Part shown: positions 2 through 43,879 of the stretch, in pieces | How positions within the stretch are numbered: the stretch's first letter is position 1 | Layout: every line of letters starts with the position of its first letter | NCBI GenBank assembly: GCA_022771715.1 | Contig: JALELF010000081.1 | Coordinates: forward strand, 1 to 43,879 | From: Bacillota bacterium | Lineage (GTDB): Bacteria > Bacillota_I > Bacilli_A > RF39 > UBA660 | Reading direction: 5' to 3' | DNA length: 43,879 bases | Notes under the pieces: generated by a model | The model's input: only the letters and a program-made list of their open reading frames with translations | What the model was told of the DNA's origin: nothing | Databases searched by the model: none | Translations under genes and position numbers: made by a program

Positions 2-835
2 ACAAGTAGTAGTGCATCAGCAGCAACATATACTAATGGTCAAAGTGTTACTAATATAAATAATGGTTCAAATACTACTTTATATGCTGTATGGAAAAAC
101 TTATTTAGTTATACAGGAAGTAAAAATGTAATTCATGATGGAAATGGAAATTGGCGAATTAAGTTCTATACAAGTGGAACATTTGTAGCTAATTATAATG
201 CTAGTCTTGACGTATTCGCAGTAGGAGGCGGAGGAGCTGGAACTTATGCTGCTAGCGACCGTGGAGGTGGAGGCGGAGGGGGCGGTTATACGACCACTTC
301 AAAGGGATTTACAGTATTCAGTGCAACATCATATAGTGTTGTAATTGGTGCAGGTGGAACTAATAATTCTAGTAACACAGGTGGAACAGGAGGAACAAGC
401 AGTTTTAGTTCAGTGCGTGCTGCTGGGGGGACATCAACAATACCAGTTGAAACAGCGGCTGGTAATGGTGGTAATGGTGGCTCAGGCGGTGGTATGAGTG
501 GTTACTATAATAGAGCTGGTGACGCTTTAAAAGGTGGCAGTAATGGAGGGAATGCTGCTTATACTTGGGCTGAATCAGGTCGTCGTGGAATTGGACAAGG
601 TACTACTACTCGTGAATTTGGGGAATCTACTGGTGATTTATACTCAGGTGGTGGAAGTGGCGCTGAAAGGGGTAACACTACTACCATAATCGCTGGTGGC
701 TCAGGCGGTGGTGGAACAGGAGGAAATGGTGGAGCTGGAACCGCTAACACTGGAGGTGGAGGTGGAGGCTCAACAGCCCAAAGTGGAGGTGGAGCTGGTG
801 GTTCTGGCATTGTTGTAATTCGCAACCATAGATAG
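2..835 (+). CDS. Glycine-rich domain protein, C-terminal part (5' end outside the window)
   Basis: Frame 2 is open from base 2 to the TAG at 833-835; the track lists it only from an internal Met at 413. Translation: ...LYAVWKNLFSYTGSKNVIHDGNGNWRIKFYTSGTFVANYNASLDVFAVGGGGAGTYAASDRGGGGGGGYTTTSKGF...GGAGGSGIVVIRNHR. GGxGG blocks alternate with short beta-like segments. The GGT/GGA/GGC run forms a local GC-rich island. A terminator hairpin follows. Confidence 0.7.
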   Translation, partial: TSSSASAATYTNGQSVTNINNGSNTTLYAVWKNLFSYTGSKNVIHDGNGNWRIKFYTSGTFVANYNASLDVFAVGGGGAGTYAASDRGGGGGGGGYTTTSKGFTVFSATSYSVVIGAGGTNNSSNTGGTGGTSSFSSVRAAGGTSTIPVETAAGNGGNGGSGGGMSGYYNRAGDALKGGSNGGNAAYTWAESGRRGIGQGTTTREFGESTGDLYSGGGSGAERGNTTTIIAGGSGGGGTGGNGGAGTANTGGGGGGSTAQSGGGAGGSGIVVIRNHR

Positions 836-840
836 ATATA

Positions 841-868
841 AAAAAAACAGAGATTAATCTGTTTTTTT
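841..868. terminator. Bidirectional intrinsic terminator between convergent genes
   Basis: AAAAAAACAGA-GATTAA-TCTGTTTTTTT: a hairpin flanked by an A-run and a T-run. It lies between the stop of the + strand glycine-rich ORF (835) and the stop of ponA (854-856) and overlaps the last ponA codons. Confidence 0.55.
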
Positions 869-5484: not shown

Positions 5485-5582
5485 AATATAGCCATGATAG
5501 AAATATTGTGGCTTTTGTTATAATTGACAAACACTTGATAATTTTATATAATTAATAATGTAAAGAAGAAAGGGTGGCTAGT

Positions 5583-6254: not shown

Positions 6255-6279
6255 TTTTGTTTTTTTAAGGTGGTGAAGA

Positions 6280-7345: not shown

Positions 7346-7365
7346 AGTTTATAACTCTTTTTTTA
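7344..7365 (+). terminator. Intrinsic terminator after pgsA
   Basis: AGAGTT-TATA-AACTCT followed by TTTTTTT. Confidence 0.65.
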
Positions 7366-7425
7366 TTAAAATAATTTACAAATTTATTATAATTATATAT
7401 AATATTAAATGGAAAGAGTGATTTT

Positions 7426-8142: not shown

Positions 8143-8166
8143 AAACTTAATTGGTTTCTTTTTTTT
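8141..8166 (+). terminator. Intrinsic terminator after the yebC-family gene
   Basis: AGAAAC-TTAATTG-GTTTCT followed by a T8 run. Confidence 0.6.
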
Positions 8167-8184
8167 CGACAAAATTCGACAAAA
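8165..8184. promoter_or_regulatory. Two tandem perfect Spo0A-box heptamers (TTCGACA = reverse complement of TGTCGAA), 10-bp register
   Basis: Exact direct repeat TTCGACAAAA TTCGACAAAA. On the minus strand it reads TTTTGTCGAA twice, containing the canonical 0A box TGTCGAA. It overlaps the -35 region of the likely kinase promoter (TG-extended -10 TGATTATAT at 8187-8195). Confidence 0.45.
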
Positions 8185-8215
8185 TGTGATTATATACTAA
8201 TATTGGTGATAAAAA

Positions 8216-9466: not shown

Positions 9467-10349
9467 TATCAAGTTTCTTTAATTCTTCATCAGTTACTAA
9501 AAAGAAAGTATAAATAATCATGTCTTCTTTAGTATTAGTTACTGGGTCATCCCAAGTTAAATCTAAATGTAACCATTTATTATTTAATAAAACGTAATTC
9601 CAAACATGCATATCACTAGTTAATTTATAATTAGTGATGTTTAATTTGTTTAAAAATACCGCCATAGCATCACTATAACCACCACATATAGCTTTTCCGT
9701 TAATTAAAGCACCAGTTGCTTTATGAGAAATAAAGTCATATTCTTTAACATTATTCTTTACTTTTTCAGCACTTTCTTCATCGTATTTAGTATTATTTAT
9801 TATATAATCATGAATAACTTTAATTTTTTCACGTTCATTCATGTCATCAGTAATGTATTCATTTATTATTTCATTTACTTTTTCGTTTATCAAAGTAATA
9901 TCATTATTATCATATAATCTTTCAATAGATATTGTAACTTTTCCTAAACTATTATAGTTTAAAACAATTCTTTTATAACTATTAAATGGATGAACATAAT
10001 TATTTATTTTCGTAAAAGTAATACTGTTACTAGCAAGATCTTCAACATCAGCCAAACAGTTTTTATAATTTTTGGTACAAAAAAATGTTACATCGTTCCA
10101 ACCACCATTTAAAGCAGTGAAGAATATATTAGTTATATCTTCTTTTGATTTTGGATAAAAATTATCTGTTGCTTGATAATCTATTGTATTACTTTTAGCA
10201 TACTGATTATTTTCATAAACAACAATCATTTTTTCATTAACATATTTCATTAATATGTAGTCAGTTATATTGTCTTTATAAACACAAGTTAATAATAAAA
10301 GCCCACATAAAAATAAAAAAGATAGAAATTTCTTCACTAGTATCACCAT
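9444..10349 (-). CDS. Secreted transglutaminase-like (Cys-His-Asp) domain protein
   Basis: N-terminal signal/TM FLSFLFLCGLLLLTCV. Transglutaminase-core pattern GKAICGGYSDAMAVFLN ... MHVWNYVLL ... HLDLTWDDP. Confidence 0.72.
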   Translation of the reverse strand: MVILVKKFLSFLFLCGLLLLTCVYKDNITDYILMKYVNEKMIVVYENNQYAKSNTIDYQATDNFYPKSKEDITNIFFTALNGGWNDVTFFCTKNYKNCLADVEDLASNSITFTKINNYVHPFNSYKRIVLNYNSLGKVTISIERLYDNNDITLINEKVNEIINEYITDDMNEREKIKVIHDYIINNTKYDEESAEKVKNNVKEYDFISHKATGALINGKAICGGYSDAMAVFLNKLNITNYKLTSDMHVWNYVLLNNKWLHLDLTWDDPVTNTKEDMIIYTFFLVTDEELKKLDTNEHNYY

Positions 10350-10413
10350 TAATATTATACACTATAAAAGCGAAAAATCATCTAAAATTATTGTAAATAA
10401 CAAATTTGTTTAC

Positions 10414-10438
10414 AAAAAAATACCTATGTAGATAGGTA
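10414..10438 (-). terminator. Intrinsic terminator of rpsT
   Basis: On the minus strand, TACCTAT-CTAC-ATAGGTA is followed by T7. It abuts the rpsT stop codon. Confidence 0.6.
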
Positions 10439-10702
10439 CTATTGAATTTCGTTAACTTTTTTTGTTAGACGTGATTTATTACGAGCAACAAAGTTTTTTT
10501 GTGCAACACCTTTAGCAGCAGCTTTATCGATTCTTTTAATTGCGACTTTTAAAGCTTCATTAGCTTTTTCTTTATCTTTGCTTAATACAGCTCTTTCAAC
10601 ATTTTTGATAGCTGTTTTCATACTAGCTTTGAAATTATTATTGCTTTCTTTTCTTTTAGCTGTAGTTATAACTGCTTTTTTAGCGTTCTTCATATTTGGC
10701 AT
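10439..10702 (-). CDS. rpsT: 30S ribosomal protein S20
   Basis: MPNMKNAKKAVITTAKRKESN..., an 87-aa basic helical protein typical of bS20. SD GGAGGTGAA upstream. Confidence 0.93.
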   Translation of the reverse strand: MPNMKNAKKAVITTAKRKESNNNFKASMKTAIKNVERAVLSKDKEKANEALKVAIKRIDKAAAKGVAQKNFVARNKSRLTKKVNEIQ

Positions 10703-10808
10703 AAATTCACCTCCAACTCACTTACAACTAACATTTTAACAAATTTCTTTATAAAAATCAATAAAAATCTTTATTTTTAAAGGCTTTTTTACGGTTATTA
10801 ACTATTTC

Positions 10809-10837
10809 GAATATAATTTGATTTTTAAATCATTATA
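10809..10837 (+). promoter_or_regulatory. Forespore-type (sigmaG/sigmaF-like) promoter upstream of gpr
   Basis: GAATA (10809-10813), 17-nt spacer, CATTATA (10831-10837). This fits the sigmaG consensus GHATR-17/18-CATXHTA. Caveat: it leaves only a very short leader before the SD at 10842-10847. Confidence 0.4.
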
Positions 10838-10852
10838 AAATAGGTGATATTA

Positions 10853-11875
10853 ATGCATAGAATTGATTTAAAAAATTACGAGATTAGAACAGATTTGGCT
10901 ATAGAAGCAACTTCTAATTTAAATAATATAAAGAAAAATGAAAAAATAATAGACAATATTAAAGTAACGAATATTTATTTAGATAAAAAAACTCATAAAC
11001 TAATAAATAAAAAAATAGGCAATTATACTACTATTGAATTTGATGATATAACTGATTACAACAAAAAAGAAACCGTAAAAAAAGTATTTAGTAGTGAATT
11101 AAGAAAATTATTAAAAAAATTATCAATAAGAGAAGATGATAGTTGTTTAGTAATTGGTCTTGGAAATATATCATCAACTCCTGATGCACTAGGACCACTT
11201 ACTATTCAAAATATCCTTGTTACTAATCATTTATTTGATGTCGCTAATGTTGAAAACGGTTTTAGAAGAGTAGGAGCTATATCGCCAGGAGTAAAAGGGA
11301 GTACCGGTATTGAAACTAGTGATATTATAAAAGGAATTGTAGATAAGGTAAAGCCTAGTTTCGTAATTGTAATAGATGCATTAGCAAGTCAGTCTATAGA
11401 ACGAGTAAATAAAACAATTCAAATGACTGATGCAGGTATTCATCCAGGAAGTGGAATAGGAAATAATCGAAAAGAAATTAGCAAAGAAACTTTAGATATA
11501 CCTGTTATTGCTATTGGGGTTCCAACGGTAGTAGATGCAGTTACTATTGTAAGTGATACAATAAACTACATGCATAAACATTTTACATATATGAAAAATA
11601 ACATTAATAAAACTAACAAATTAATACCTATAAATAAAATAAATTATTTGAAGGAACAAATAGATGTAACTATTGAAGATAAAAAGAATTTGCTTGGAAT
11701 GATTGGTAATTTAAATGAATCAGAAATAAAACAACTTATATATGAGGTGTTAAGCCCAATTGGTTATAATCTAATGGTAACCCCTAAAGAGATAAATTTT
11801 GTTATTGATAAACTGAGTGATGTAATTGGAAATGGTATTAATAGAGCGCTTCATAAAAATGTGAATAATCTCTAA
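10853..11875 (+). CDS. gpr: Germination protease (spore endopeptidase) Gpr
   Basis: N-terminus ...YEIRTDLAIEA, VIGLGNISSTPDALGP and DAGIHPGSGIGN match the GPR family. ATG 10853 is preferred (AGGTGA upstream) over GTG 10844. Adjacent to rpsT, as in Bacillus. Confidence 0.88.
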   Translation: MHRIDLKNYEIRTDLAIEATSNLNNIKKNEKIIDNIKVTNIYLDKKTHKLINKKIGNYTTIEFDDITDYNKKETVKKVFSSELRKLLKKLSIREDDSCLVIGLGNISSTPDALGPLTIQNILVTNHLFDVANVENGFRRVGAISPGVKGSTGIETSDIIKGIVDKVKPSFVIVIDALASQSIERVNKTIQMTDAGIHPGSGIGNNRKEISKETLDIPVIAIGVPTVVDAVTIVSDTINYMHKHFTYMKNNINKTNKLIPINKINYLKEQIDVTIEDKKNLLGMIGNLNESEIKQLIYEVLSPIGYNLMVTPKEINFVIDKLSDVIGNGINRALHKNVNNL

Positions 11876-11939
11876 TTAGTGGTTGCTAAAAAAATAAATA
11901 AATGATAAAATTATATTGTATTCATGAGTAGGTGATATG

Positions 11940-12182
11940 ATGGGTGAAACAAAAATTTTTGATAGTGGCAAATTTGAAGAAGCTTTAATCGAAGACACTG
12001 TTAAAGAAGTGTTTACGATTCTTGGAGATTGTGGGTATAATCCAGTTAATCAAATAGTTGGCTATTTAATAAGCGGAGATCCTGGCTATATTTCTAATCA
12101 CAAAGAAGCTAGAAAAAAATTAACTAAATTTAATCGTAATCAAGTATTAGCTGTAATATTAAAGAAGTTTGTAGAAAAATGA
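11940..12182 (+). CDS. ireB: IreB-family regulatory phosphoprotein (UPF0297/YrzL)
   Basis: GYNPVNQIVGYLISGDPGYISNHKEARKKL is the signature core of the family. Either start, 11937 or 11940, is possible. Confidence 0.85.
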   Translation: MGETKIFDSGKFEEALIEDTVKEVFTILGDCGYNPVNQIVGYLISGDPGYISNHKEARKKLTKFNRNQVLAVILKKFVEK

Positions 12183-12601
12183 GATATTTAGGTTTAGATT
12201 TAGGTACTAGAACATTAGGAGTATCTATAAGTGATGAATCTAAAACATTAGCTAACACTTTAACAACTCTACGTTTTGATGGTAATTATGATAACTTATT
12301 AGAGCCATTAAAAAAAATTGTTAATGATGAAAATGTAGAAAAGATTATTTTAGGTTTACCTATTAATATGAACTATACAATTGGTGATAGAGGAAAAGTA
12401 ACTCTTGAATTCAAAGAAAAATTAGAAAAATATTTAAATATTGAAGTTATTATGCAGGATGAGAGGCTTTCAACAGTAGAAGCTACTAACTACTTATTAC
12501 AAGCTGATATGTCACGCAAAAAAAGAAAGAAGCACGTAGATAGTTTAGCTGCTAATATAATTCTTCAAACATATTTAGATAAAATGAAAGGAATGAAATA
12601 A
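12179..12601 (+). CDS. ruvX: Putative pre-16S rRNA nuclease / Holliday junction resolvase-like RuvX (YqgF)
   Basis: MRYLGLDLGTRTLGVSISD... and DERLSTVEA motifs. ATGA overlap with ireB. Confidence 0.9.
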   Translation: MRYLGLDLGTRTLGVSISDESKTLANTLTTLRFDGNYDNLLEPLKKIVNDENVEKIILGLPINMNYTIGDRGKVTLEFKEKLEKYLNIEVIMQDERLSTVEATNYLLQADMSRKKRKKHVDSLAANIILQTYLDKMKGMK

Positions 12602-12894
12602 TGACAAACGAAAGAATGACTTTTAAAGTTAATGATGAAAATGGTAATGAAATTGAATGTGAAGTATTATTTACATTTGAAAGTGATGAAACTAAGAAAA
12701 ATTATATAGTATATACTGATAATACTACTGATGAAGGTGGAAACACTAAAGTATATGCATCTATTTATACACCAGGAGAAGAAAGTACTACTTTACTTCC
12801 TATTGAAACTGAAAAAGAGTGGAAAATAATTGAAACAATCTTAGAAGAAGTTCAAGCTGAAGCTAAAAAAGCAGTAGAAGGAGATAATGAGTAA
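12601..12894 (+). CDS. DUF1292 family protein (YrzB-like)
   Basis: Acidic 97-aa protein with ECEVLFTFESDETKKNYIVYTD. Conserved position between ruvX and mltG. Confidence 0.82.
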   Translation: MTNERMTFKVNDENGNEIECEVLFTFESDETKKNYIVYTDNTTDEGGNTKVYASIYTPGEESTTLLPIETEKEWKIIETILEEVQAEAKKAVEGDNE

Positions 12895-12913
12895 TAATAC
12901 TCATTTTTAATGT

Positions 12914-13963
12914 ATGAAAAAGATAGTAGTTGGAATTGTCGCATTACTTTTTATTGTAATTGGTGCTTTTTTTACATTGTTTACTCTTGAAACTACTGCT
13001 GTTAGCAGAGATACAACTCCTATCGAGTTTGAGATTAAAAAGGGTGAAACATATTTAACAATCGCTTCTAGATTAAAAGAAGATAATTTAATTAAGTCTG
13101 AATTGTTTTATAAAATTTTTATAAAATTGACTAATCCAAGTAAAATAGAAGCAGGAAAGTATGAACTTTCAGAATCAATGAGTGTATCTGATATTGTAAA
13201 AAAGTTTATGAAAGGTAACATTTATAATGCAGAAACTGTAACATTCACTGTTCCGGAAGGAAAACATTTAGAGGAAGTAGCAACTATTGTTTCTAAACAG
13301 ACTAATTATACTGAAAAAGAATTAATAGATGGCTGGAATGATACTAAATTTATAGATGATGTAATAGAAAAGTATTGGTTTGTTACTGATTCTGTTAAAA
13401 TGGATGGTATTAGATATGCTTTAGAAGGTTATCTATATCCTGATACTTATGAAATTTATGTAAATGCTAGTATAGAAGATATAGCTTATAAAATGTTAGA
13501 TAAAATGGATAAAGTTTTAACTGAATATAAGTCTGATATAGAAAATAGTGAATATAGTGTTCATGAATTACTTACAATGGCTAGTATTATTGAACATGAA
13601 GCTATATTAGATGATGATAGAAAAATAATTGCAAGTGTGTTTTATAATAGGTTAGAATCTAATATGAAGCTTCAAAGTTGTGCAACTATAGGATACGCAA
13701 CTAATGAATGGAAACTTACTTATAGCAGTACTGACTTAAAAGTAGATTCACCTTATAACACTTATTATTATAGTGGTTTACCTGTAGGACCTGGTAATAT
13801 GCCAAGTGTTAAATCTATTGAAGCTGCTTTATATCCAGAAGAAACAGATTATTTGTACTTTTTAGCAAACGTTTGTGATAATAATGATAAAAAAACATAT
13901 TTTTCTAAAACTTATGACGAACATGTTGAAAAGAAAAATAAATATTTAACTTGCGTTAATTAG
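12914..13963 (+). CDS. mltG: Endolytic murein transglycosylase MltG (YceG-like)
   Basis: N-terminal TM, LysM-like segment, TMASIIEHEA, LQSCATIGY and SPYNTYYYSGLPVGPGNMPS. Confidence 0.9.
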   Translation: MKKIVVGIVALLFIVIGAFFTLFTLETTAVSRDTTPIEFEIKKGETYLTIASRLKEDNLIKSELFYKIFIKLTNPSKIEAGKYELSESMSVSDIVKKFMKGNIYNAETVTFTVPEGKHLEEVATIVSKQTNYTEKELIDGWNDTKFIDDVIEKYWFVTDSVKMDGIRYALEGYLYPDTYEIYVNASIEDIAYKMLDKMDKVLTEYKSDIENSEYSVHELLTMASIIEHEAILDDDRKIIASVFYNRLESNMKLQSCATIGYATNEWKLTYSSTDLKVDSPYNTYYYSGLPVGPGNMPSVKSIEAALYPEETDYLYFLANVCDNNDKKTYFSKTYDEHVEKKNKYLTCVN

Positions 13964-13986
13964 GTAGATTTTCTACCTTTTTTGTT
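13962..13986 (+). terminator. Intrinsic terminator after mltG
   Basis: AGGTAGA-TTT-TCTACCT followed by TTTTTGTTT. Confidence 0.7.
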
Positions 13987-14050
13987 TAAAATTAGCAAAA
14001 AAACTATACAATATAATAGTTTTGTGTTATAATCAGTACGTAAGAAGCAG

Positions 14051-14081
14051 ATGAGTGGGACATAATCCCACTCATTTATTT
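14051..14081 (+). promoter_or_regulatory. Leader hairpin / candidate attenuator of the rimP-nusA-infB operon
   Basis: Perfect 10-bp stem ATGAGTGGGA-CATAA-TCCCACTCAT followed by TTATTT. It lies between a TG-extended -10 (TGTTATAAT, 14025-14033) and the rimP SD (14083-14090). Confidence 0.4.
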
Positions 14082-14094
14082 AGAAAGGAATTGT

Positions 14095-14346
14095 ATGGAA
14101 GTAGAAAAAACGGTAAAAAATTTAGTAGAAAATGTAATAATCGACAATGGTTATAAATTGGATGAAGTTAAATATGAAAAAGAAGGAAATATTTATTTCT
14201 TAAGAATTATTATTGATAAAGAACCATATGTTGATGTAGAAGATTGTGTCAAAATAAGTAATTTAATAAATCCTATATTAGATAAAGAAGACCCAATCCC
14301 AGATAGTTATATTTTAGATGTTTGTTCAAAGGAAAGAGGAAATTAG
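14095..14346 (+). CDS. rimP: Ribosome maturation factor RimP, N-terminal domain only (83 aa)
   Basis: Aligns by eye with the first half of Bacillus RimP/YlxS (...GNIYFLRIIIDKE..VDVEDCVKISNLINPILDKEDPIPDSYILDV...). It stops where the SSPG(x)ERPL motif would begin. nusA starts 2 nt later. Confidence 0.7.
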   Translation: MEVEKTVKNLVENVIIDNGYKLDEVKYEKEGNIYFLRIIIDKEPYVDVEDCVKISNLINPILDKEDPIPDSYILDVCSKERGN

Positions 14347-14347
14347 T

Positions 14348-15436
14348 ATGAATGGTAAAGAATTCAAAGAAACATTAAGAATACTTAATAAAGAAAAAGG
14401 AATTAGTGAAGAAACAGTATATGAAGCTATGGAATTAGCTCTTACATCAGCTTATAAAAAACAAACAGGATTACCTAACGTTAGAGTTGACATAGATAGA
14501 GAAACTGGCGATATTCATATGTATTCATTTAAAACAGTTATGAATATCGATGAAGTAGATGAAGATGGCGACTTATTGTTTGATGATAGAGTTAATTTAA
14601 CTTTAGAAGATGCAAGAAAGATTGTTCCAGGTATTAATTATGGCGAAACTATAGAAAAAGAAGTTGATCCAAAAGAATTTGGAAGAGTTGCGGCAGCTAC
14701 TGCTAAACAAGTAGTTATTCAAAAAATGAGAGAAGCAGAAAAAAATATAATTATTGATGAATATCAAGATAAACAAGATGAAATGGTATCAGGAATAGTA
14801 GGTATGGAAGATGCATATAATTATTATATCGATTTTGGAAAAGCACAAGGACTACTTCCTAAATCTGAAATAATACCTGGGGAAACAATAAAAATGGGTT
14901 CTAACTTAAAAGTATATATTACTAAAGTAGAAAGTGGTAGTAAGGGCCCAGTTATTCTTTTATCAAGAAAACATTATGGTTTTGTAAAAAGATTATTTGA
15001 ATTAGAAATTCCTGAAATAACAGATGGTATTATCATGGTATATAGCGTTGCTAGAGACGCCGGAAATAGAACAAAAATAGCTGTTTATTCAGAAAATGAA
15101 AGAGTAGATGCAGTAGGTTCTTGTATTGGTGAAAAAGGAACTAGAATCGCTAATATTTTAAGAGAATTAAATGGCGAAAAAGTTGATATAGTTAAATACG
15201 ACAAAGATCCTGCTAAATTTATAGAAAATGCTTTAGCTCCTGCAAAGGATGTCCATGTATTCATAACTGATGCTAAAAAACAAGAAGCTTTAGTTGTAGT
15301 AAATGATGAAAACTTGTCACTTGCTATTGGTAAAAAAGGCTTAAATGTTAAATTAGCAAGTAAACTAACACATTATAAAATAGATGTTAAAACATTTGAA
15401 CAAGCTAAAGAAATGGGTATCAATATAATAGAATAA
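14348..15436 (+). CDS. nusA: Transcription termination/antitermination factor NusA
   Basis: Typical N-terminal domain, S1 domain and two KH domains (e.g. GSCIGEKGTRIANILRELNGEKVDIV, LAIGKKGLNVKLASKLT). Start ATG 14348 with SD AGGAAAGAGGA. Confidence 0.93.
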   Translation: MNGKEFKETLRILNKEKGISEETVYEAMELALTSAYKKQTGLPNVRVDIDRETGDIHMYSFKTVMNIDEVDEDGDLLFDDRVNLTLEDARKIVPGINYGETIEKEVDPKEFGRVAAATAKQVVIQKMREAEKNIIIDEYQDKQDEMVSGIVGMEDAYNYYIDFGKAQGLLPKSEIIPGETIKMGSNLKVYITKVESGSKGPVILLSRKHYGFVKRLFELEIPEITDGIIMVYSVARDAGNRTKIAVYSENERVDAVGSCIGEKGTRIANILRELNGEKVDIVKYDKDPAKFIENALAPAKDVHVFITDAKKQEALVVVNDENLSLAIGKKGLNVKLASKLTHYKIDVKTFEQAKEMGINIIE

Positions 15437-23386: not shown

Positions 23387-24266
23387 AGTAATTGTAATTA
23401 CCGGTCCTACTGCTACTGGGAAAACTAAATTAAGTATTGAAATAGCAAAACACTTTAATGGTGAAATTATAAATGCTGACAGTACACAAGTTTATAGAAA
23501 TCTTGATGTTGCAACTGCTAAAGTAACAGAAGAAGAAAAAGAAAATATTCCTCATTATTTGTTTGATATTAAAGATATAACTGATGATTATACAGTGTTT
23601 GATTATCAAAAAGATGGTAGAAATAAAATAAAAGAAATATTTGGTAAAAATAAAACACCAATTGTAGTAGGTGGTACAGGTTTATATATAAAAGCACTAT
23701 TATATGATTATAAATTTAATGAAGAAAAAAATAATAATGATTTTGATAATTTAACAAATGAAGAAATATATAATAAGTTAAAAGAATTAGATAACAATAT
23801 AGAAATACATGTTAATAATAGAAAAAGATTAGTTAGAGCTTTAAATTATGTATTAAATACTAACAAAAAATATAGTGAAAAAGAAAAAACTGATACTTTA
23901 TTATATCCTACATTATTTATTGGTTTAACTACATCTAGACATAATTTATATGATCGAATTAATAAAAGAGTAGAAGCAATGATAAATAATGGTCTAATAG
24001 ATGAAGCAAAAAAAATATATGACACTAATATTAGAAGTAAAGCTGTTATGACGCCAATAGGTTATAAGGAATTATTTATGTATTTTGATAATGAAATATC
24101 ATTAGAAAACGCTATTGATTTAATTAAACAAAGAAGTAGAAAATATGCTAAAAGACAGTATACGTGGTTTAATAACCAAATGAATATCAAATGGTTTAAC
24201 ACCGATTATGATAATTTTTCAAATACAATTAAAGAAGTAGTTGATTACATAGAATGTCAAAAATGA
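23379..24266 (+). CDS. miaA: tRNA dimethylallyltransferase
   Basis: P-loop [30 protein letters not shown] and RQYTWF. Confidence 0.93.
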
Positions 24267-24316
24267 TATTCTTTTTTTTTGAATTTTGGTATAATATATT
24301 TGAAGGTAGTGATTAT

Positions 24317-27300
24317 ATGAATACACAAAGAATAGATAATGTATTAGAAAAAATGAAAGAAAGTAAAAATTATAAAGATTTTACTAATTTATTGTCATTT
24401 GATGAAAGAAAATATATATTTTATCATTTAGAATCGTATGCAGAAACTTATTCTTTTATAGCAAGTTCTAATTTTTGTTCAAATATTTTTAAAGAAGAAG
24501 AAGCAGAAGAAATATATAATAATGAATTTAATGAATTAGATGGATTACTAAAGCAAATTTTAATATGTTCTTTAAATATTGATTTAGCCAAAGAAGTAAT
24601 AAAAAAAATAGCTGAACCCGATACATCAATTGTATATTCTTCTTTTTTGGCAAAACTATCTTCAGATAAAGAAAGAATAGAATGGATTAATAATACGGAT
24701 TTATCTTATTTAGATGCAGGAAGCATATTTGTTTTATTAGTATCTAATTTAGAAGACTTTGATTTAAAATTAGAGTATATGAAAAAACATCCAGAATATA
24801 AAATTCGGTTTGCCAATATTTTTAAAACTATAAATAATGATGCAGATTTAAAAAAAGCTATTGATTTTTATAAAGAAAATTTCCTTGAAAAAAATGATTA
24901 TAACATCGTTACCTTGATTGAACAATTTAATGATGATAATCTAAAACTACAGTACTTAAATATTATTGAATATGGTGGTTTTAAATCAGAAATAATAGCA
25001 AGCCTAAAAGATGAAGATTTAAAAATTAGTCTTTTAGACACTTTAGATGATGGCACAATTTATTCAGATAACTATAAATATGATGTAATTATAAGTATAA
25101 AAGATATGAAAAAAAGAATGGCTTTATTATCTACTATAAATAGTATAACTTTAAAACTTATCCATGCTGGTTGGTTAGATAATGTTAAAGAAATATATCC
25201 TGAAATAATTAAGAAAGTAGCTATAGAAAATGATTTAAATTATGATAATCTTTTAGCGCTTTCTAATAAATTAGGATATAGTGTTATTAGAAATTTAAGC
25301 GTAAACCTAAAACAAATAATAAATTTAGATAAAGATGAATTTAACAAATTATTACAAATAATAGATGTTGAAAAATCTCATCAACTAGAAATGAAAGACG
25401 TTGATAACATAGTTGAAGCAATTATTCAAAGAGAGTTTAGAATTAAAAATAGAGAAGTTATTTCCGTATTTCCAAAATTAGAACATTTAATTCAAAATAA
25501 AGATGTAAATGGAATAATTGGCATTTTAGCTGATATTAATAACTATATTGATATAAATGAGATGTTAAACGAACATAATCTTAATTTAGAAGTATTTATT
25601 AATAGGTTATTAGAAAATGAAAATATTAATATTTTACATGAAATTACTAATAAATATATAGAATCATTGAGAAAAAAATACTTATTAGAAAGACAAAAAA
25701 AAGTAAAAAGTGAGTTAAATTTAGAATATGCTTTTGAAAAAAACTACTTAATTTCTAAATTTTTCCAAAAATATAATAATGAAGATATTTTTAAATTACT
25801 TAATCGTGAGATAGATAAGAGCAATTTATCTACTGAACAATTAGAATTATTAAATAATGAATCTTTACTTATAGAATGTCTAAAATTTAAAAGAGATCCT
25901 AAAAATTATAGTGGAGACAATTTAGCTAGAAGTAAAGCTAAACAATTAAATCAAATTTTAACTATTTTATATTTAGATAAGAAATTAGATTTTTTAGGCA
26001 ATAAAGAAGATGAGAATGCTGAAATTATTTATAAGACAAAAAAAGTACCTAATGATGTTTTTATTGGTTTAATGAAAGAATTAGATATAAATGTATTAAA
26101 AAATAAGATTTTTAATGATTCAGAAATGTATAGTAAACTACTTAATGTATTTAAATCATATAAGTTTATTGGCTGGTCTAATATTTTTGAAAAATTATTA
26201 GAAGGCGCTGATTTATCATTTGGTGAAAGAGATGTTGCGGTATTAATTAACTATTTTTATAGTTTTTATCCAAAACTAGAAGAAAGACTTAAAAATGGTT
26301 TAATAAGTAATATAAGTTTAACAACTATTCTTGATGAAATAGGAACATATGGTAGCTCTTCAGTAAAATATGATTATTTACTTGGAAAAGAAGATTCTAA
26401 ACTTATTATTTCTAATCCAAGTCCTAATGCAGCTCATTTGACAGTAGAGCAGAGATTAAAAATAGTTCCTGAAGAAGTAAAAAAACAATTTAGCAGAAAA
26501 CATATTACAGTTCCTAATATAGATAAAGAGATACCATTAAAAAAAGGAAAAACAATAAAAGCAAATATTGGTGATGTAACTAGTCCTATTAATTTGACTT
26601 ATGGTGAAAGAACAGGTGCTTGTATGAGAATAGGAGGTGCCGGTAGTACATTGTTTGATTTTTGTTTAGAAAATGAAAATGGTTTTCATGTAAGATTAAC
26701 TGATTCTGTTACTAATAAACTTATAATTAGAGTAAGTGGGTTCAGAAACGGTAATACAATATTTTTAAATCAACTAAGATATAGTTTAGATGAAAATATA
26801 ACAGCTTCCGATTTGATAGAAGCAATTAAAGTAGTAGCAAAAGAGCTTGTAGAATTAACTAAAACGAGTGAGTATCCTATTAAAAATGTTGTTATATCTG
26901 ATGGATATGTTATGGAAGGTAAAGAAAAAAATTTACTAAATGTAGAAAATGTAAAAGAAGGTTATAAGTATTTTTACTCTGATGTACAAAATAATAATGC
27001 AATTTATTTAGAAAACAATGATAAAATAGAGTTAGGACCTGAAAAAGCTGTAAAGTATGAAGTTTCTAGAAAAAAAGCAGTACGTTACGAAAATTTATCA
27101 GAAATAAACGAGCAAATTCAAAGATTTAATCTTATAAATGGACTATTATTAGGAACCTCTTTAGGAGATATACCTTTAGTAGATGAAAACAATATAGGAA
27201 ATATTCAAAAATTATATGTAGGTGAAGACTTTTTATTAGCGTTTGACTTTGCTGGCAATATTATTATCGAATCAATTTTAGAAAGAGATGAATATTTTAA

Positions 27301-27370
27301 AGAAAAAGCAAAAAAAGAAATAGATGAAATTAAAAAGTCCTTAGTTAAAGCAGGAGGTAAAACTATATGA
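24317..27370 (+). CDS. Large hypothetical protein (about 1017 aa): helical repeat N-terminal part plus unknown C-terminal domain
   Basis: Uninterrupted ORF. Start placed at ATG 24317 (MNTQRIDNVLEK), downstream of a TG-extended -10 (TGGTATAAT, 24287-24295). The track start at 24254 lies inside miaA. Recurrent xDxxLK[LI]xY[LM] motifs occur in the N-terminal third. The C-terminal part contains GERTGACMRIGGAGSTLFDFCLENENGFHVRLTD. I recognise no family. Confidence 0.65.
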   Translation: MNTQRIDNVLEKMKESKNYKDFTNLLSFDERKYIFYHLESYAETYSFIASSNFCSNIFKEEEAEEIYNNEFNELDGLLKQILICSLNIDLAKEVIKKIAEPDTSIVYSSFLAKLSSDKERIEWINNTDLSYLDAGSIFVLLVSNLEDFDLKLEYMKKHPEYKIRFANIFKTINNDADLKKAIDFYKENFLEKNDYNIVTLIEQFNDDNLKLQYLNIIEYGGFKSEIIASLKDEDLKISLLDTLDDGTIYSDNYKYDVIISIKDMKKRMALLSTINSITLKLIHAGWLDNVKEIYPEIIKKVAIENDLNYDNLLALSNKLGYSVIRNLSVNLKQIINLDKDEFNKLLQIIDVEKSHQLEMKDVDNIVEAIIQREFRIKNREVISVFPKLEHLIQNKDVNGIIGILADINNYIDINEMLNEHNLNLEVFINRLLENENINILHEITNKYIESLRKKYLLERQKKVKSELNLEYAFEKNYLISKFFQKYNNEDIFKLLNREIDKSNLSTEQLELLNNESLLIECLKFKRDPKNYSGDNLARSKAKQLNQILTILYLDKKLDFLGNKEDENAEIIYKTKKVPNDVFIGLMKELDINVLKNKIFNDSEMYSKLLNVFKSYKFIGWSNIFEKLLEGADLSFGERDVAVLINYFYSFYPKLEERLKNGLISNISLTTILDEIGTYGSSSVKYDYLLGKEDSKLIISNPSPNAAHLTVEQRLKIVPEEVKKQFSRKHITVPNIDKEIPLKKGKTIKANIGDVTSPINLTYGERTGACMRIGGAGSTLFDFCLENENGFHVRLTDSVTNKLIIRVSGFRNGNTIFLNQLRYSLDENITASDLIEAIKVVAKELVELTKTSEYPIKNVVISDGYVMEGKEKNLLNVENVKEGYKYFYSDVQNNNAIYLENNDKIELGPEKAVKYEVSRKKAVRYENLSEINEQIQRFNLINGLLLGTSLGDIPLVDENNIGNIQKLYVGEDFLLAFDFAGNIIIESILERDEYFKEKAKKEIDEIKKSLVKAGGKTI

Positions 27371-27582
27371 AAAAAGAAGGAATAGTAACAAAATATGATG
27401 GTTATACAGGTAGTATTAAAGATAGTTTAGGGAAAGACTATTTATTGCTAAAAAAGGAAACATTAGAAAATATCAAAGAAAAAGATATAGTTTTGTTTGA
27501 TCCAGAAGTAGTAGTTACTACATATGAAGATAGACACATAGCACGATTTGTAAAGAAAAAAAATACTGTTAAGCACTTTTAA
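27367..27582 (+). CDS. Small OB/cold-shock-like beta protein (71 aa)
   Basis: ATGA overlap with the upstream stop. Strong SD CAGGAGGT 9 nt upstream. GIVTKYDGYTGSIKDSLGKDYLLLKKE...DIVLFDPE has cold-shock-domain-like spacing but lacks the RNP1/RNP2 aromatic motifs. Basic tail. Confidence 0.6.
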   Translation: MKKEGIVTKYDGYTGSIKDSLGKDYLLLKKETLENIKEKDIVLFDPEVVVTTYEDRHIARFVKKKNTVKHF

Positions 27583-29293: not shown

Positions 29294-29391
29294 TATAAAC
29301 TTTTTTTTTATATTTGTCTAGTAGTAGTTTTTGATTGAAATACAAATTGATATTGTGCTATAATTAAATAGGTAGTATAAAGGAGGGTAAT

Positions 29392-31578
29392 ATGGCTAAA
29401 AAGAAAAAAAGAAAAGAACCTTCTAAAAAAAAGAATAGTTATTCAGTAGAATTACGTGGTTTAATATTAATTTTGTTTGCTGTAATTGGCTTTGGTAGAT
29501 TTGGAATAGTTGGAGAAATGGTAAGTGCATTTGCGGCATTTTTAGTTGGTACTTGGTATAATGTATTACTAGCTATGTTATTAATAGTTGGAATATATAT
29601 GATGGTAAAAAGAGAAGCGCCAAACTTTTTTACTTCAAAATTGTTTGGACTTTATGTGTTTATAATAGGTATTCTTGTTTTATCACATCTTAATTATGTC
29701 ACAGATACAACTTTAAAAGGTTTCGATATGGTAAAAGAAACGATTGATAATTTTATGTTATCAATTAAAAATATTGATATAATTCAAGGTGGAGGTATCA
29801 TAGGTGCTTTATTTACACTTTTAAATATATCATTATTTGATGTAAAAGGTACTGATATAGTAATAGTAGTACTATTAATTTGTGGCGTTGTTATGTTTAC
29901 TGGTGTATCAATTATGGATGCATTAGGTAAAATAAAAGAAAAAGGTAAAAAAGTAATACATCATAATAAAGAGAAAAAAGATAAACAAGAAATAAAAGAA
30001 GTAGAAGAAAAATATGAAAATGATAATAAAATTGTTGTTTCTAGCTATGACGAATTAGTTCATGTTGATGAGAAGGAAGAAGTAAAGGAAGAATCTGAGC
30101 CTGTAAAGGAAACTGATATTATAGTTAATAGTAGTTATAAACTACCACCTTTAACTTTGCTAAATAATCCTCCTAAAAATAAAACTAATGAAAATCAAAT
30201 GCACGCTAAGGAAAATGCTGGTTTATTAATACAATTACTTAAAGACTTTGGAATAGAGAGTGAAGTAGTTGGTATTAATATAGGTCCTAGTGTAACACAA
30301 TACGAGTTAGAAATAAAAGGTGCGATTAAATTAAGTAAAATTCTTAGCTTAAATAAAGAGATTGCTTTAGCTTTAGCAGCTGAAGATGTTAGAATTCAAG
30401 CTCCAATTCCAGGTAAAAGAACGGTAGGAATAGAAATACCTAATAAAGTAATATCAATGGTTAGTGTAAAAGAAATTCTTCAAACCGTACCTGCTAATAT
30501 GGAAAGCAGTAAATTATTAGTTACATTGGGTAAGAATATAATGGGTAAACCAATATATGCTGAAATAAATAAAACTCCCCATCTTTTAGTTGCGGGTGCG
30601 ACTGGTTCTGGTAAATCAGTATGTATTAATAGTTTTATTATTTCTATTTTGATGCGTACTAAACCAGATGAAGTAAAACTTGTATTAGTTGATCCTAAAA
30701 AGGTAGAACTTTCTATGTATAATGGAGTTCCTCATTTATTGGCGCCAGTAGTAACAGACCCTAAAAGAGCTAATGTCGCTTTAAAAAAGATAGTTTCTGA
30801 AATGGAACGTAGATATGATTTGTTTGAAAAAAGTGGAACTAAAAATATTGCTGGATACAATGCTTATATTGACAAATATAATGAAACAGCTAGTGAAGTA
30901 GAAAAACAACCTAAATTACCATATATTGTTGTTATAATCGATGAACTTGCAGACTTAATGTTAGTTGCGGCTAAAGAAGTAGAAGATAGTATTATGCGTA
31001 TAACACAAATGGCTAGAGCAGCAGGTATTCATTTAATTGTCGCTACACAAAGACCTAGTACAGATGTCATAACTGGTGTTGTTAAAGCTAATATCCCATC
31101 ACGTATTTCATTTGCTGTTAGTAGTCAAATAGACTCTAGAACAATATTGGATGCAGGTGGAGCAGAAAAACTATTAGGTAAAGGTGATATGTTATTTTCA
31201 CCAATGGGTTCATCTACTCCTATGCGTGTTCAAGGAACATTTATCTCTGAAGAAGAAATAAAAAGAGTAGTTGATTATGTTATAAAACAGCAAATAGCTC
31301 GTTATGATGAAACATTATTAATGGATGATGAAGAAATGCACGCTACTACTATGGTAGAAGAACACGATGCTAATGAAGAACCTCTATATAATGAAATTGT
31401 AAAATTTGTAGTTGAACAAGGAAAAGCTTCAGCATCCTTATTACAAAGAAGATTTAGATTAGGATACAATAGAGCAGCTCGTGTAATAGATTTATTAGAA
31501 GAACGTGGAATAATTGGTCCAAATAATGGTTCAAAACCTAGAGAAGTATTAGTAAAAGTTGAAAATAAAGAGGAATAA
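29392..31578 (+). CDS. ftsK: DNA translocase FtsK/SpoIIIE
   Basis: Basic N-terminus and 4-5 TM helices, an acidic linker, Walker A GATGSGKS, Walker [11 protein letters not shown], and a C-terminal winged-helix gamma domain ([27 protein letters not shown]). Confidence 0.93.
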
Positions 31579-31592
31579 AAGTAGGTGAATAT

Positions 31593-33686
31593 ATGAAAAA
31601 TAGAGGATTTACTTTGATAGAAATGCTAGGTGTTATGATAATACTAACATTTCTTGCTTTTATCGTTTCAGAAGTTATTATAAATAATATTAATGATACT
31701 AATAGTAAATTAGAAAAATTAGCAAATGATATTTTAATATCTTCAGCTCGTGATTACGTTAGTAAAAATGAATTTGAATTTGAAAAAAAAATTAATAATA
31801 GTTATTGTATTAGTTATAGATCACTAGTAGTAGGGGGATTTATAAAAGATGAAATGTTACCGAAAATTAAAAATATAAAAGACATTGATTCTAGAAGTGT
31901 TAGTGTTAGTTATAATGGTAGTTTATTTGAGTATAATGTTTTAACTAATGAATGTGAATATAGTGTAAGTTATGAGTTAAGAAATGTTCAGGCAAATAAA
32001 ACTATTACTAGTCTAAAAGTAGGAGAAAAAGCAGAGTTAATAATTACTGCTAACTCTAATTATGAACTTCCTGAAAAAGTTGTGGTTAAGGGCGCTGATT
32101 ATACTTGGGATAAAAGTACTGGAAAACTAGTTTTAACATATATTTATAACAATGTTGTAATTAGTGTTCAAGGAGTAAGTTTAGTTGATGCAACTAAGCC
32201 AATATTAACTATTGACCCTAAAGATGGTATTTTTAAAAGTAGTGTAAATATAACAGTAACAGTTCGTGATGACGAAAGTGGCTTATCAGATAATAATAAA
32301 TATCAGTATTGTTTATCAAAAAACAATTCTTCTCCTACTGATTGTACATGGAATGATTATGTAAGTGGAACTCCTTTTGAAATAACAGGCGATAATGATA
32401 CATATTATTTATGGATTTATCCTATAGAAGACAACTATGGAAATATAAATGATGACAATATAAATTTAAGCCCTTATGTTATAGGTACATATAAGTTTGA
32501 TTCAATAGCGCCAACTCTTGATATAATTACTAGTGCTTCTAATTGCTCTCAAACGACTGCTGTTACTATAAGTATTTCTGATTCAGGTACTGGTCTATCT
32601 GATGAAAACAAATATCAATATTATTTATCAACAAGTAATACATCACTTGAAAATGGTAGTTTTCAAACTTACAAAAGTGGTAGTAGCTTTTCATTTAATA
32701 CTGATATTAATAATTATACACCAGGTACTTATTATTTATGGATATACCCGATTAAAGATAATGTCGGTAATGTTACTAATAATGTAGAATTTGGAAACCC
32801 TTATAATGCTAAAACTATAACATTAAAGTATGAAAAGTGTTTTTCCTATAATGGTGGTTCACAAACTTTTACAGTTCCTCATGCAGGTAATTATAAAGTA
32901 GAGGCTTGGGGAGCTCAAGGTTCTGGTAATGATGGAGGTAAAGGTGGCTATACTAAAGGCAATATTGACATGAGTAAAAGTGAAGTTTTTTATGTTTATG
33001 TTGGTGGTCAAAATGGTTATAATGGCGGTGGAACTGGTTGTTCAAGTACTTTGACTGGTGGCGGCGCTACTGATTTAAGATTAATATCTGGTGCTTGGAA
33101 TGATTCTAAATCACTAAATAGCAGAATAATGATTGCTGGTGGTGGTGGTGGGAATAATTATGATATAGTTACACCAGGCCATGGTGGAGGATTAAGTGGA
33201 ACTACAGGTATTCCTAATGGTAATTATACGGCTTATACTTCTACAGGTGGTACTCAAACTTCTGGTGGAATTGTAAATAATCATGGGGCTTCTTATACAC
33301 CTGGAACGAATGGTTCTTATGCTAAAGGTGGAACTGGTGGATGTGATTCAGGAGCTTATGGTGGCTCATATGGTGGCGGCGGTGGATTATATGGTGGAGC
33401 TGGAGGCTCACGACTTTATGGGGGTCAATGGAGCGGTGGTGGTGGCTCATCATATATATCTGGTCATACCGGCTGTGTAGCAGTTACATCGCAAACTAGT
33501 AGTACACCTAAATCAGGATGTAGTAATGGTACTACTGATATAAGTTGTTCATATCATTATAGTGGTAAAAAATTTACTAGTACACAAACTATTACTGGTA
33601 ATAATACAATGCCTAATACTACAACAGGGACTTCTGTTGGACATTTAGGTGATGGTTATTTAAAAATAACTTATTTAAATTCTTAA
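31593..33686 (+). CDS. Prepilin-leader protein with two Ig-like repeats and a C-terminal ALK/LTK-like glycine-rich domain (697 aa)
   Basis: MKNRG/FTLIEMLGVMIILTFLAFIV is a type IV prepilin cleavage/methylation motif (G-1, F+1, E+5). Tandem repeats of about 105 aa (nt 32190-32501 and 32502-32837) share GLSDxNKYQYxLS and YYLWIYPIxDNxGN. From nt 32838: CFSYNGGSQTFTVPHAGNYKVEAWGAQGSG..GGKGGY..VYVGGQNGYNGGGTG..TGGGATDLRL..IMIAGGGGGN... Starts 14 nt after the ftsK stop. SD AGTAGGTGA. Confidence 0.8.
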   Translation: MKNRGFTLIEMLGVMIILTFLAFIVSEVIINNINDTNSKLEKLANDILISSARDYVSKNEFEFEKKINNSYCISYRSLVVGGFIKDEMLPKIKNIKDIDSRSVSVSYNGSLFEYNVLTNECEYSVSYELRNVQANKTITSLKVGEKAELIITANSNYELPEKVVVKGADYTWDKSTGKLVLTYIYNNVVISVQGVSLVDATKPILTIDPKDGIFKSSVNITVTVRDDESGLSDNNKYQYCLSKNNSSPTDCTWNDYVSGTPFEITGDNDTYYLWIYPIEDNYGNINDDNINLSPYVIGTYKFDSIAPTLDIITSASNCSQTTAVTISISDSGTGLSDENKYQYYLSTSNTSLENGSFQTYKSGSSFSFNTDINNYTPGTYYLWIYPIKDNVGNVTNNVEFGNPYNAKTITLKYEKCFSYNGGSQTFTVPHAGNYKVEAWGAQGSGNDGGKGGYTKGNIDMSKSEVFYVYVGGQNGYNGGGTGCSSTLTGGGATDLRLISGAWNDSKSLNSRIMIAGGGGGNNYDIVTPGHGGGLSGTTGIPNGNYTAYTSTGGTQTSGGIVNNHGASYTPGTNGSYAKGGTGGCDSGAYGGSYGGGGGLYGGAGGSRLYGGQWSGGGGSSYISGHTGCVAVTSQTSSTPKSGCSNGTTDISCSYHYSGKKFTSTQTITGNNTMPNTTTGTSVGHLGDGYLKITYLNS

Positions 33687-33687
33687 G

Positions 33688-33713
33688 ACAAGATAAACAA
33701 ATCTTGTTTTTTC
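33688..33713 (+). terminator. Intrinsic terminator after the pilin-like gene
   Basis: ACAAGAT-AAACAA-ATCTTGT followed by TTTTTT. Confidence 0.7.
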
Positions 33714-33757
33714 TTTTATTTTATTATATAATCTAATTACTTGAAGTAGGTGTAATT

Positions 33758-43333: not shown

Positions 43334-43879
43334 ATGAAAAATAAGGGATTCACATTGATAGAATTATTAGGAGTAATAATAATACTAGCGTTAGTTGCTG
43401 TTATTACAACTCCAGTAATAACAGGAATAATAGAAGATTCTAAAAAAGAAACTGTTAAAAGAAGTGTTGAAAATATAATTAGTGCAGCACAAATATATAT
43501 AGCTAATGAAGAACTAGCTAACAAAAAAGTTCCCAAAGGCAAGAATATATATGAAGCTGTTTCAAAAGAGATAAGTGGAAGTAAGCCTGAATATGCTGAA
43601 ATAATAAGTGATGGAATAGGAAATATAGCTTATGCTATATTATTTAGAAATAATTGTTATAAAAAGTCTTACGATGGCGTTCAGACAATAACTGAAAAAA
43701 GTACTATTAAAGATTGCAAAATCGTATATGCAGAAACTATATTAAATGGGGCATATCCAGTATTAGATGAAAAGATGATAGCTATTACGTATACTGAAGC
43801 AGGTATACCAAAAGTAGCAGATGAATCTAGTGAATGGTATAGTTATGCAAGTAGAAAGTGGGCTAATGCAGTAGTATTA
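43334..43879 (+). CDS. Prepilin-type N-terminal cleavage/methylation domain protein, N-terminal 182 aa (3' end outside the window)
   Basis: Not in the ORF track because it has no stop in the window. ATG 43334 with SD GAAGGG, in frame to 43879 with no stop (translated by hand). MKNKG/FTLIELLGVIIILALVAVITTPVI has G-1, F+1 and E+5. TTGTTT-17-TATAAT promoter upstream. Confidence 0.8.
   Translation, partial: MKNKGFTLIELLGVIIILALVAVITTPVITGIIEDSKKETVKRSVENIISAAQIYIANEELANKKVPKGKNIYEAVSKEISGSKPEYAEIISDGIGNIAYAILFRNNCYKKSYDGVQTITEKSTIKDCKIVYAETILNGAYPVLDEKMIAITYTEAGIPKVADESSEWYSYASRKWANAVVL

Follow-up and report, generated by a model that had tools for sequence, protein, structure and literature searches.

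Under the definition of Raynaud et al. (2021; PMC8179133), a modular pilin carries the N-terminal pilin module IPR012902 together with at least one domain that is not pilus-specific. These authors showed that in the Streptococcus sanguinis PilB protein a vWA adhesin module is borne on a pilin. Their catalogue contains over 1,200 such proteins in 264 architectures, and their Dataset S1 lists the architecture IPR012902-PF12810 for two proteins, plus one protein with three copies. We analysed here a 43,879-nucleotide (nt) stretch of DNA from a Bacillota bacterium (GenBank assembly GCA_022771715.1, contig JALELF010000081.1, positions 1 to 43,879 of the forward strand), hereafter called the window, and in particular a gene located between ftsK and smc, the product of which, 697 amino acids (aa) long, ends in an ALK/LTK-type glycine-rich domain (Table 1). 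The protein is an uncharacterised member of the published modular-pilin class; its architecture has been catalogued, with no member studied. On balance, we favour the view that it is a modular, minor type IV pilin, that is to say a glycine-rich adhesin displayed on a pilus. A first reading of the sequence, which we call the initial annotation, had put the gene forward as an undescribed system. This part of the reading has to be given up, since modular pilins are defined and the IPR012902-PF12810 architecture is listed in the work cited above, and since an exhaustive search for the glycine-rich domain returned 6052 cluster representatives (a word-indexed search gave 106 homologues). The modular-pilin concept and the architecture being already published, the gene extends a known theme and opens none.

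Described relatives also exist for the C-terminal part of the protein. In the cyanophage Pam3, a module made of a TNF-like and a glycine-rich part occupies the gp24 fibre's distal end and was assigned to receptor recognition; a likeness to the Caenorhabditis elegans ALK protein is given for the phage glycine-rich module (PMC9608196). In the same paper, gp38 of the Salmonella phage S16 (Dunne et al. 2018) is cited as a receptor-binding tip of the tail fibre with a glycine-rich domain. On the pilus side, CofB of enterotoxigenic Escherichia coli, ComZ of Thermus and GspK of the type II secretion system (T2SS) are discussed as large minor pilins with extra domains (PMC8179133).

The initial annotation had divided the protein into three parts, namely a prepilin leader, two tandem immunoglobulin (Ig)-like repeats of about 105 aa, and a last stretch of about 280 aa with an ALK/LTK-type glycine-rich domain. 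Profile hidden Markov models, repeat statistics and structural models all bear out this division, and the prepilin and glycine-rich profiles both score above their curated cut-offs. The N-terminus, MKNRG/FTLIEMLGVMIIL, matches the Pfam family N_methyl PF07963 over aa 2-25 with 25.1 bits (E 1.2e-5, for a cut-off of 21.2 bits) and passes the NCBIfam model TIGR02532 IV_pilin_GFxxxE (19.3 bits versus a cut-off of 16.3); the cleavage and N-methylation motif read there at first is therefore retained. The sequence MKNRG/FTLIE... has the features of a class III signal peptide, with a short basic leader that ends in Gly, and in the predicted mature protein Phe would be residue 1 and Glu residue 5. In the AlphaFold2 (AF2) model, which was built on an alignment of 67 sequences and has a mean predicted local distance difference test (pLDDT) of 88.8, the leader is followed by a long alpha-1 helix, the hydrophobic first half of which is predicted to form the membrane anchor and the filament-core segment. 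A profile of the N-terminal module compared with the PDB gave 20 matches, all of them type IV pilins or pseudopilins (best E 3.7e-10), and S. sanguinis PilE1 was among them, over 80 residues. The small head predicted after the helix contains antiparallel strands at 70-74, 102-107 and 112-117, short helices and the pair Cys72/Cys121, which is partly conserved and recurs in several homologues. With the whole protein, a sequence search of the PDB returned a chance match alone (E 0.26).

The two repeats that follow are well defined. When aligned, aa ~202-295 and ~306-404 show 38 identities in 98 alignment columns (39%), and their local alignment score is 177, as compared with 34.6 +/- 6.3 in 500 shuffles (z = 22.5). 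The motifs GLSDxNKYQY and YYLWIYPI are common to both, as had been claimed. All-beta domains are modelled by AF2 at aa 204-302 and 308-411, with a pLDDT above 90 for the first repeat, so that the beta-sandwich models and the repeat statistics agree on two tandem Ig-like domains. Matches to fibronectin type III (FN3) and Ig arrays in a Foldseek search, ranked after those to ALK/LTK, account for the two repeats. No family was found at E<0.1 in a Pfam scan of aa 199-416, which spans both repeats, and this includes PF16403 Bact_surface_Ig-like, a family that is matched by homologues such as the protein of locus L015. The two repeats are Ig/FN3-like by their predicted fold only.

The C-terminal domain gives the strongest match of the protein. 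Pfam PF12810 ALK_LTK_GRD covers aa 430-695 with 127.2 bits (E 1.4e-36; gathering threshold 24.5 bits) and profile positions 6-243 of 243, and the content in Gly is 26% in aa 417-697 as against 5% before. When the multi-domain protein was used as a Foldseek query against the PDB, places 1-18 were taken by ALK/LTK ectodomains, with E-values of 1e-6 to 3e-5 and a probability of 1.0; sequence identity in these fold matches is 14-18%, and the TM-scores on the target are modest (0.29-0.42). The predicted fold intertwines a TNF-like beta-sandwich with a compact glycine-rich domain. The Gly-rich core lies between strands at 414-515 and 631-696, and the pLDDT of aa 416-697 is mostly above 90. A check had been proposed on whether the Gly-rich part would come out disordered or compact, and the model gives a compact domain: the core, aa 516-630, is modelled with confidence (pLDDT by block 80-98) and has almost no helix or strand according to DSSP. 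A polyglycine II (PGII) lattice is made of polyglycine-II helices with phi/psi angles near -75/145, packed hexagonally, and shows little regular structure to DSSP. The predicted core is consistent with such a lattice. Among the viral models of BFVD, the best local fits are phage proteins named 'glycine-rich domain' (root mean square deviation 3.8-6 A, 27-32% identity). The alignment of the family shows conserved Gly motifs with variable stretches between them, which fits a stable scaffold with variable loops. Many of the phage and giant-virus BFVD matches with a glycine-rich domain carry the name 'receptor protein-tyrosine kinase', which looks like an annotation artefact spread from the name of the ALK/LTK family.

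With N_methyl and ALK_LTK_GRD on one polypeptide, the window protein is a modular pilin by definition. Like S. sanguinis PilB (pilin plus vWA) and PilC (pilin plus lectin), it has an N-terminal pilin module followed by a non-pilus module, and by analogy with these two proteins adhesion displayed at the tip, in a monoderm, would be its expected role. It differs from the S. sanguinis modular pilins in its effector, which is TNF-like/glycine-rich and belongs to a type without a studied member, in the two Ig-like spacers and the extra small domain placed after the pilin head, and in the location of its gene outside a pil locus. The TG ectodomain of ALK/LTK (PDB 7NX4, 7NWZ, 7NX1, 7LRZ, 7LS0 and 7LIR) belongs to the same Pfam family and provides the best PDB matches, but the window protein lacks a kinase, an EGF or MAM/LDLa context and an ALKAL-type ligand. 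With Pam3 gp24 and S16 gp38 it shares conserved glycine stems and variable segments between them; unlike these phage tips, it is carried by a pilin helix and not by a trimeric fibre shaft, and its gene has no adjacent fibre chaperone gene and no phage context. CofB, ComZ and GspK, as they are discussed in PMC8179133, also bear bulky domains added to a pilin module and are thought to occupy the filament tip, whereas the extra domains described for them there are unrelated in fold to those of the window protein. Moreover, GspK has no Glu5 whereas the window protein keeps it; some glycine-rich homologues with a 'KGF...' leader are also without Glu5. Finally, ComGC-ComGG and GspG/H have a similarly short leader and a homologous N-terminal alpha-1 segment, and the match covers alpha-1 only. 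Identity with a Com pilin or with GspG/H was rejected on the NCBIfam equivalog scores, which are 12.9-22.7 bits for cut-offs of 49-88.85.

The genomic context of relatives provides the main link with a pilus. In locus L015, dnaG-rpoD-trmK-yqfQ is followed in order by pilC (T2SSF, 161 bits), a gene for a prepilin peptidase (A24_N_bact and Peptidase_A24), one for a PilB/GspE-type ATPase (T2SSE, 411 bits), a pilin-like gene of 184 aa and a 537-aa homologue composed of N_methyl, an Ig-like domain and ALK_LTK_GRD. In locus L031, which has the same synteny as L015, an 830-aa homologue is found 2.5 kb downstream of a dnaG-rpoD-trmK-yqfQ-pilC-pilD block. A homologue thus lies within 3 kb of pilC-pilD in two relatives, and near pilB too in one of them (L015). 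This linkage supports the proposal of the initial annotation that the protein is a pilus or pseudopilus subunit which displays a glycine-rich domain and has its assembly genes elsewhere. Homologues also often adjoin another pilin gene (L008, L011 and L032), and small conventional pilin genes of 133-184 aa are present nearby in L011, L015 and L019. The most extended array occupies positions 841-15421 of locus L012 (JAFYYX010000001.1, a 1.04-Mb contig of Bacilli bacterium RGIG7548), where nine consecutive genes of the same strand encode proteins of 402-747 aa. In these, which share 32-50% pairwise identity, the prepilin leader and the pilin head are fused directly to the glycine-rich domain, and two of the nine contain a second glycine-rich domain. 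As a side observation, the PilC/T2SSF platform protein of L015 (4269-6437) is 722 aa long and shows T2SSF homology from about residue 320 only; this part is preceded by some 310 residues with a Lys-rich region and several segments of hydrophobic character, an arrangement unusual for PilC.

We then compared the ftsK-smc slot among close relatives. In the window, the neighbouring genes are those of RNase J, FtsK, SMC and a GNAT acetyltransferase, and the arrangement RNase J, ftsK, pilin gene, smc is maintained on contigs with a 99%-identical gene. In L034, the 579 aa of FtsK that the contig includes show 92% identity, and the slot holds a 65%-identical orthologue, which is followed by rnfC and not by smc. 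In L035, the contig includes the 51 C-terminal residues of FtsK, which show no difference, and SMC has 92.7% identity over its first 177 residues; the gene found between them (157-2160, protein P0008) encodes the same leader, pilin head and both Ig repeats, is devoid of aa 122-199, and has as its C-terminal module Gly_rich_2 (71 bits), not ALK_LTK_GRD. As judged from these sequences, the effector module is exchanged at a fixed locus. The slot gene also diverges rapidly. By comparison with L034, the nonsynonymous rate (dN) is 0.27 for the pilin gene and 0.065 for ftsK, that is about four times faster in the pilin gene, for similar synonymous rates (dS, 0.91 for the pilin gene and 0.75 for ftsK). 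Within the pilin gene, dN is highest in the head (0.43), lower in the spacer domains (0.30-0.36) and lowest in the glycine-rich domain (0.21). As dS is near saturation, all these values are rough. Fast divergence together with module exchange at one locus is expected of an exposed surface adhesin.

The initial annotation had also taken the gene to be expressed with ftsK. A functional tie to ftsK is not sustained, as only the close relatives L034 and L035 (FtsK 92-100% identical) conserve the location behind ftsK, and more distant homologues adjoin other housekeeping genes: thiF/rpsP, secE-nusG, valS/htpG, frr and dnaJ. A functional ftsK-pilin unit was therefore rejected. On the basis of these comparisons, the association with ftsK reflects how genes are ordered in a single lineage and not a common function, and ftsK appears as a bystander. 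The spacing noted at first was confirmed, with a 14-nt gap between the end of the ftsK stop codon (31578) and the start codon of the pilin gene. The best sigma-70-like promoter, upstream of ftsK, is known from its consensus match (Table 1), and no comparable promoter was found in a consensus scan of the + strand over the last 600 nt of ftsK. The ftsK-pilin transcript likely starts at this predicted promoter, and the pilin gene is probably read through from it, i.e. co-transcribed with ftsK. What had been called a clean terminator after the gene turned out to be a weak, 10-bp AT-rich hairpin (-8.7 kcal/mol, z = -3.1) with a U-run after it, which is not called by a consensus terminator scan requiring at least three G-C pairs. 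The GC content of the 3' half of the gene is raised (39% versus 26%); this was considered as a sign of transfer and rejected, because the Gly codons account for it.

According to the mechanism that we propose, a prepilin peptidase encoded elsewhere would cut the MKNRG leader and N-methylate the new N-terminal Phe. The hydrophobic half of alpha-1 would hold the protein in the membrane until its loading into a filament, and a machine of the PilB/PilC type would lift it into a type IV filament, most likely at the tip or near it since the protein is bulky. The flexible segment and the two Ig-like domains would then act as a stalk that projects the TNF-like/glycine-rich domain off the filament, and this domain would be the working end, attaching to a ligand on the surface of a host, a food particle or a microbe. 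What we infer here is that the protein is processed, is built into a filament, stands at its tip and serves as an adhesin; the binding step follows the precedents of phage tail-fibre tips and of ligand binding by ALK/LTK, and an adhesin role is plausible by this analogy.

Several observations weigh against this proposal. As had been noted at the outset, no ATPase, platform or prepilin-peptidase gene is present among the larger open reading frames (ORFs) of the window, all of which were scanned. Most of the homologues examined have no adjoining pilus genes, and arrays contain up to nine paralogues, far above the handful of minor pilins typical of a type IV pilus. No bacterial member of the glycine-rich family has a known ligand. 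The overall dN/dS of the gene is below 1, and dS is close to saturation. Finally, the isolated N-terminal 190 aa gave no significant match to a solved pilin when searched with Foldseek against the PDB (best E 0.11), a result that we do not take as a negative since a long helix with a tiny sheet and an extra beta domain makes a poor Foldseek query. Taken with the profile matches to pilins, it leaves the homology of alpha-1 firm and makes the pilin head only topologically plausible.

The scattering of these genes among housekeeping genes, mostly unlinked to assembly genes, favours the main rival explanation, in which the class III signal serves only as a device for secretion and anchoring, and the protein, once cleaved, stays tethered to the membrane by alpha-1 as part of a variable glycine-rich coat, with no polymerisation into a pilus. 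Archaea use a prepilin-type signal in this way for some sugar-binding proteins (the bindosome of Sulfolobus). The many paralogues, up to the tandem of L012, are in line with such a coat, and so is the presence of the glycine-rich domain on Sec-type, TasA/SipW-like and type IX secretion system (T9SS) anchors: being carried by several types of anchor, it behaves as a generic surface module. However, Glu5 and the full alpha-1 are conserved, as filament packing needs, the gene is near pilC-pilD in two relatives, and we know of no bacterial precedent for this use of the signal. We regard a coat of this type as unlikely. In the same range, and only tentatively, we consider that in uncultured Bacilli of the gut and rumen, which have small genomes, the prepilin signal may provide a common platform on which a large and rapidly evolving set of glycine-rich binders is built, with dozens of paralogues, scattered or arrayed, and with ALK-type and Gly_rich_2 modules alternating in the ftsK-smc slot. 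If so, we would be dealing with a pilin-based variable adhesin system and not with a single accessory minor pilin, and filament assembly might be partly dispensable.

A T2SS-like pseudopilus might otherwise export the protein as its cargo, or the protein might be set free from it by cleavage; in either case it would act as a soluble or loosely attached binder. The ATPase and the platform protein of L015 do score highest against GspE (490 bits) and GspF (280 bits), but these scores are under the GspE and GspF equivalog cut-offs and those of the PilB and PilC models are nearly equal. Moreover, the protein sequence shows neither an evident second cleavage site nor a release motif. T2SS cargo normally has a Sec or Tat signal and not a prepilin leader, and we hold a pseudopilus cargo to be very unlikely. 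It is still harder to see the protein as the major subunit of a thick filament made wholly of large pilins. Many paralogues do fuse the pilin module to the glycine-rich domain without a spacer, such as the L012 genes of 402-434 aa. On the other hand, small conventional pilin genes stand near the loci of relatives, as mentioned above, and four bulky domains per subunit would be expected to clash in the helical lattice of a type IV filament, as we infer from PMC8179133; we rate this arrangement as highly improbable. Lastly, although phage and giant-virus proteins commonly contain the glycine-rich domain, the notion that the gene is a prophage tail-fibre remnant with a coincidental pilin-like N-terminus is hardly credible, and a prophage origin or a phage receptor-binding protein was rejected on the context, since ORF scans found no phage genes in the window, the N-terminus is a prepilin signal that scores above curated cut-offs and recurs in dozens of homologues, and the gene has stayed intact, with 99% conservation over 6 contigs and a cluster that comprises 92 member sequences.

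Concerning the distribution of the family, 479 of the 6052 cluster representatives are found at E<=1e-30. The strict G-F-T-L-I-E leader is present in 43 of the 106 homologues of the word-indexed search, and several more have Ala at position -1 or a degenerate 'KGF'. Among the closest 144 new cluster representatives, 32 strict and 12 degenerate pilin-type leaders were counted; the remainder have other hydrophobic N-termini (Sec-type signals, membrane anchors) or none. Some of these 144 proteins are giant, with up to 7,663 aa and 9-10 copies of the domain. Proteins P0227-P0231, P0249, P0271 and P0319, of ~6,700-7,700 aa, contain up to 10 separate stretches that match the query, and several have Sec-type signals. 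In the first search and in the genome scan, other members of the glycine-rich-domain family carry T9SS tails or TasA/SipW-like signals. One metagenome-assembled genome (MAG), CAUAFL01 (ERR9578261_bin.45), contains at least five dispersed ALK_LTK_GRD paralogues of ~500 aa (loci L018, L019, L021, L023 and L026), the N-terminus of which, MTKRKELVLIIVGL...ITYAAFSYS, resembles by eye only the SipW-type signal of TasA/camelysin. All the loci of the genome scan are in MAGs of uncultured 'Tenericutes', Bacilli, Erysipelotrichaceae or Firmicutes, from gut or rumen where the source is named. Their identity with the window protein is 34-60% over the best segment and ~40-44% over the full glycine-rich domain; with the closest relative at ~44% over this domain, the species of the window lies outside the representative genomes that were scanned. 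A literature search combining PF12810, ALK_LTK_GRD or polyglycine II with pilin or bacteria found no paper on bacterial members.

To our knowledge, a role has been established for the ALK/LTK-type glycine-rich domain in animal receptors and phage tail fibres only, and the several thousand bacterial members, some of them in proteins of more than 7,000 aa, have no assigned function. By placing this domain on a predicted type IV pilin, the window gene gives it a testable role, in which it would bind a ligand at a filament end. Most of the family is concentrated among low-GC Bacilli of the gut and rumen that are uncultured. As a gene that diverges fast and has its modules exchanged at one fixed locus, it is probably a place where contact is made with a host, a phage or another microbe. 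For specialists, the interest lies in the size of an unstudied bacterial family, its concentration on pilin leaders in uncultured gut Bacilli, the paralogue arrays and the exchange of modules in the slot.

Table 1. Features of the window, with the pilin gene and its parts first (aa, residues of the 697-aa protein; all features on the + strand)
Feature	Position	Strand	Basis
Whole gene, predicted modular type IV pilin, 697 aa	31593..33686	+	ATG start; stop codon 33684-33686
Leader peptide MKNRG, aa 1-5	31593..31607	+	Predicted cleavage after Gly5, from the motif
Alpha-1 helix, aa 8-58, 51 residues	31614..31766	+	Both AF2 models
Small globular pilin head, aa 59-121 (predicted)	31767..31955	+	AF2, pLDDT 70-93
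Low-confidence linker and small beta domain, aa 122-199	31956..32189	+	AF2; absent from the P0008 orthologue
Ig/FN3-like repeat 1, aa 200-303	32190..32501	+	Repeat statistics, AF2, fold matches
Ig/FN3-like repeat 2, aa 304-415	32502..32837	+	Repeat statistics, AF2, fold matches
TNF-like beta-sandwich and glycine-rich domain, aa 416-697, proposed ligand-binding module	32838..33683	+	Pfam, AF2, Foldseek
Ribosome-binding site AGGTGA	31583..31588	+	Read from the sequence
Sigma-70-like promoter, best upstream of ftsK, TTGAAA-18-TATAAT, extended TG	29335..29364	+	Consensus match only, 11/12
Weak terminator-like hairpin and U-rich tract	33685..33725 (hairpin 33685-33710)	+	RNA folding
ftsK, 728 aa, upstream neighbour	29392..31578	+	FtsK_alpha, FtsK_SpoIIIE, FtsK_gamma
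Second prepilin-type gene, cut by the window end	43334..43879	+	N_methyl, 28.6 bits
3' end of a gene for a glycine-rich surface protein	2..835	+	Gly_rich_2 PF21722, 66 bits

Two further genes at the ends of the window were added to the account given by the initial annotation. The second prepilin-type gene begins MKNKGFTLIELLGVIIIL... and has its own upstream region. Its closest full-length homologue is P0108, of 303 aa; the sole longer contig, followed in search of a pilus operon, ends 107 bp past this 303-aa homologue. At the other end, the partial Gly_rich_2 gene has 277 visible residues and a C-terminal end ...GGGAGGSGIVVIRNHR; its N-terminus is outside the window. Elsewhere, a 1038-aa ORF located downstream of queA-miaA (24254-27370, + strand) matches no Pfam family above threshold. 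It is overlapped by a 71-aa ORF (27367-27582, + strand), and L001 has the same conserved pair, of 1035 aa and 71 aa. Finally, a rimP-like ORF of 83 aa (14095-14346, + strand), which contains the RimP_N domain alone and overlaps the start of nusA, may be a truncated or split RimP.

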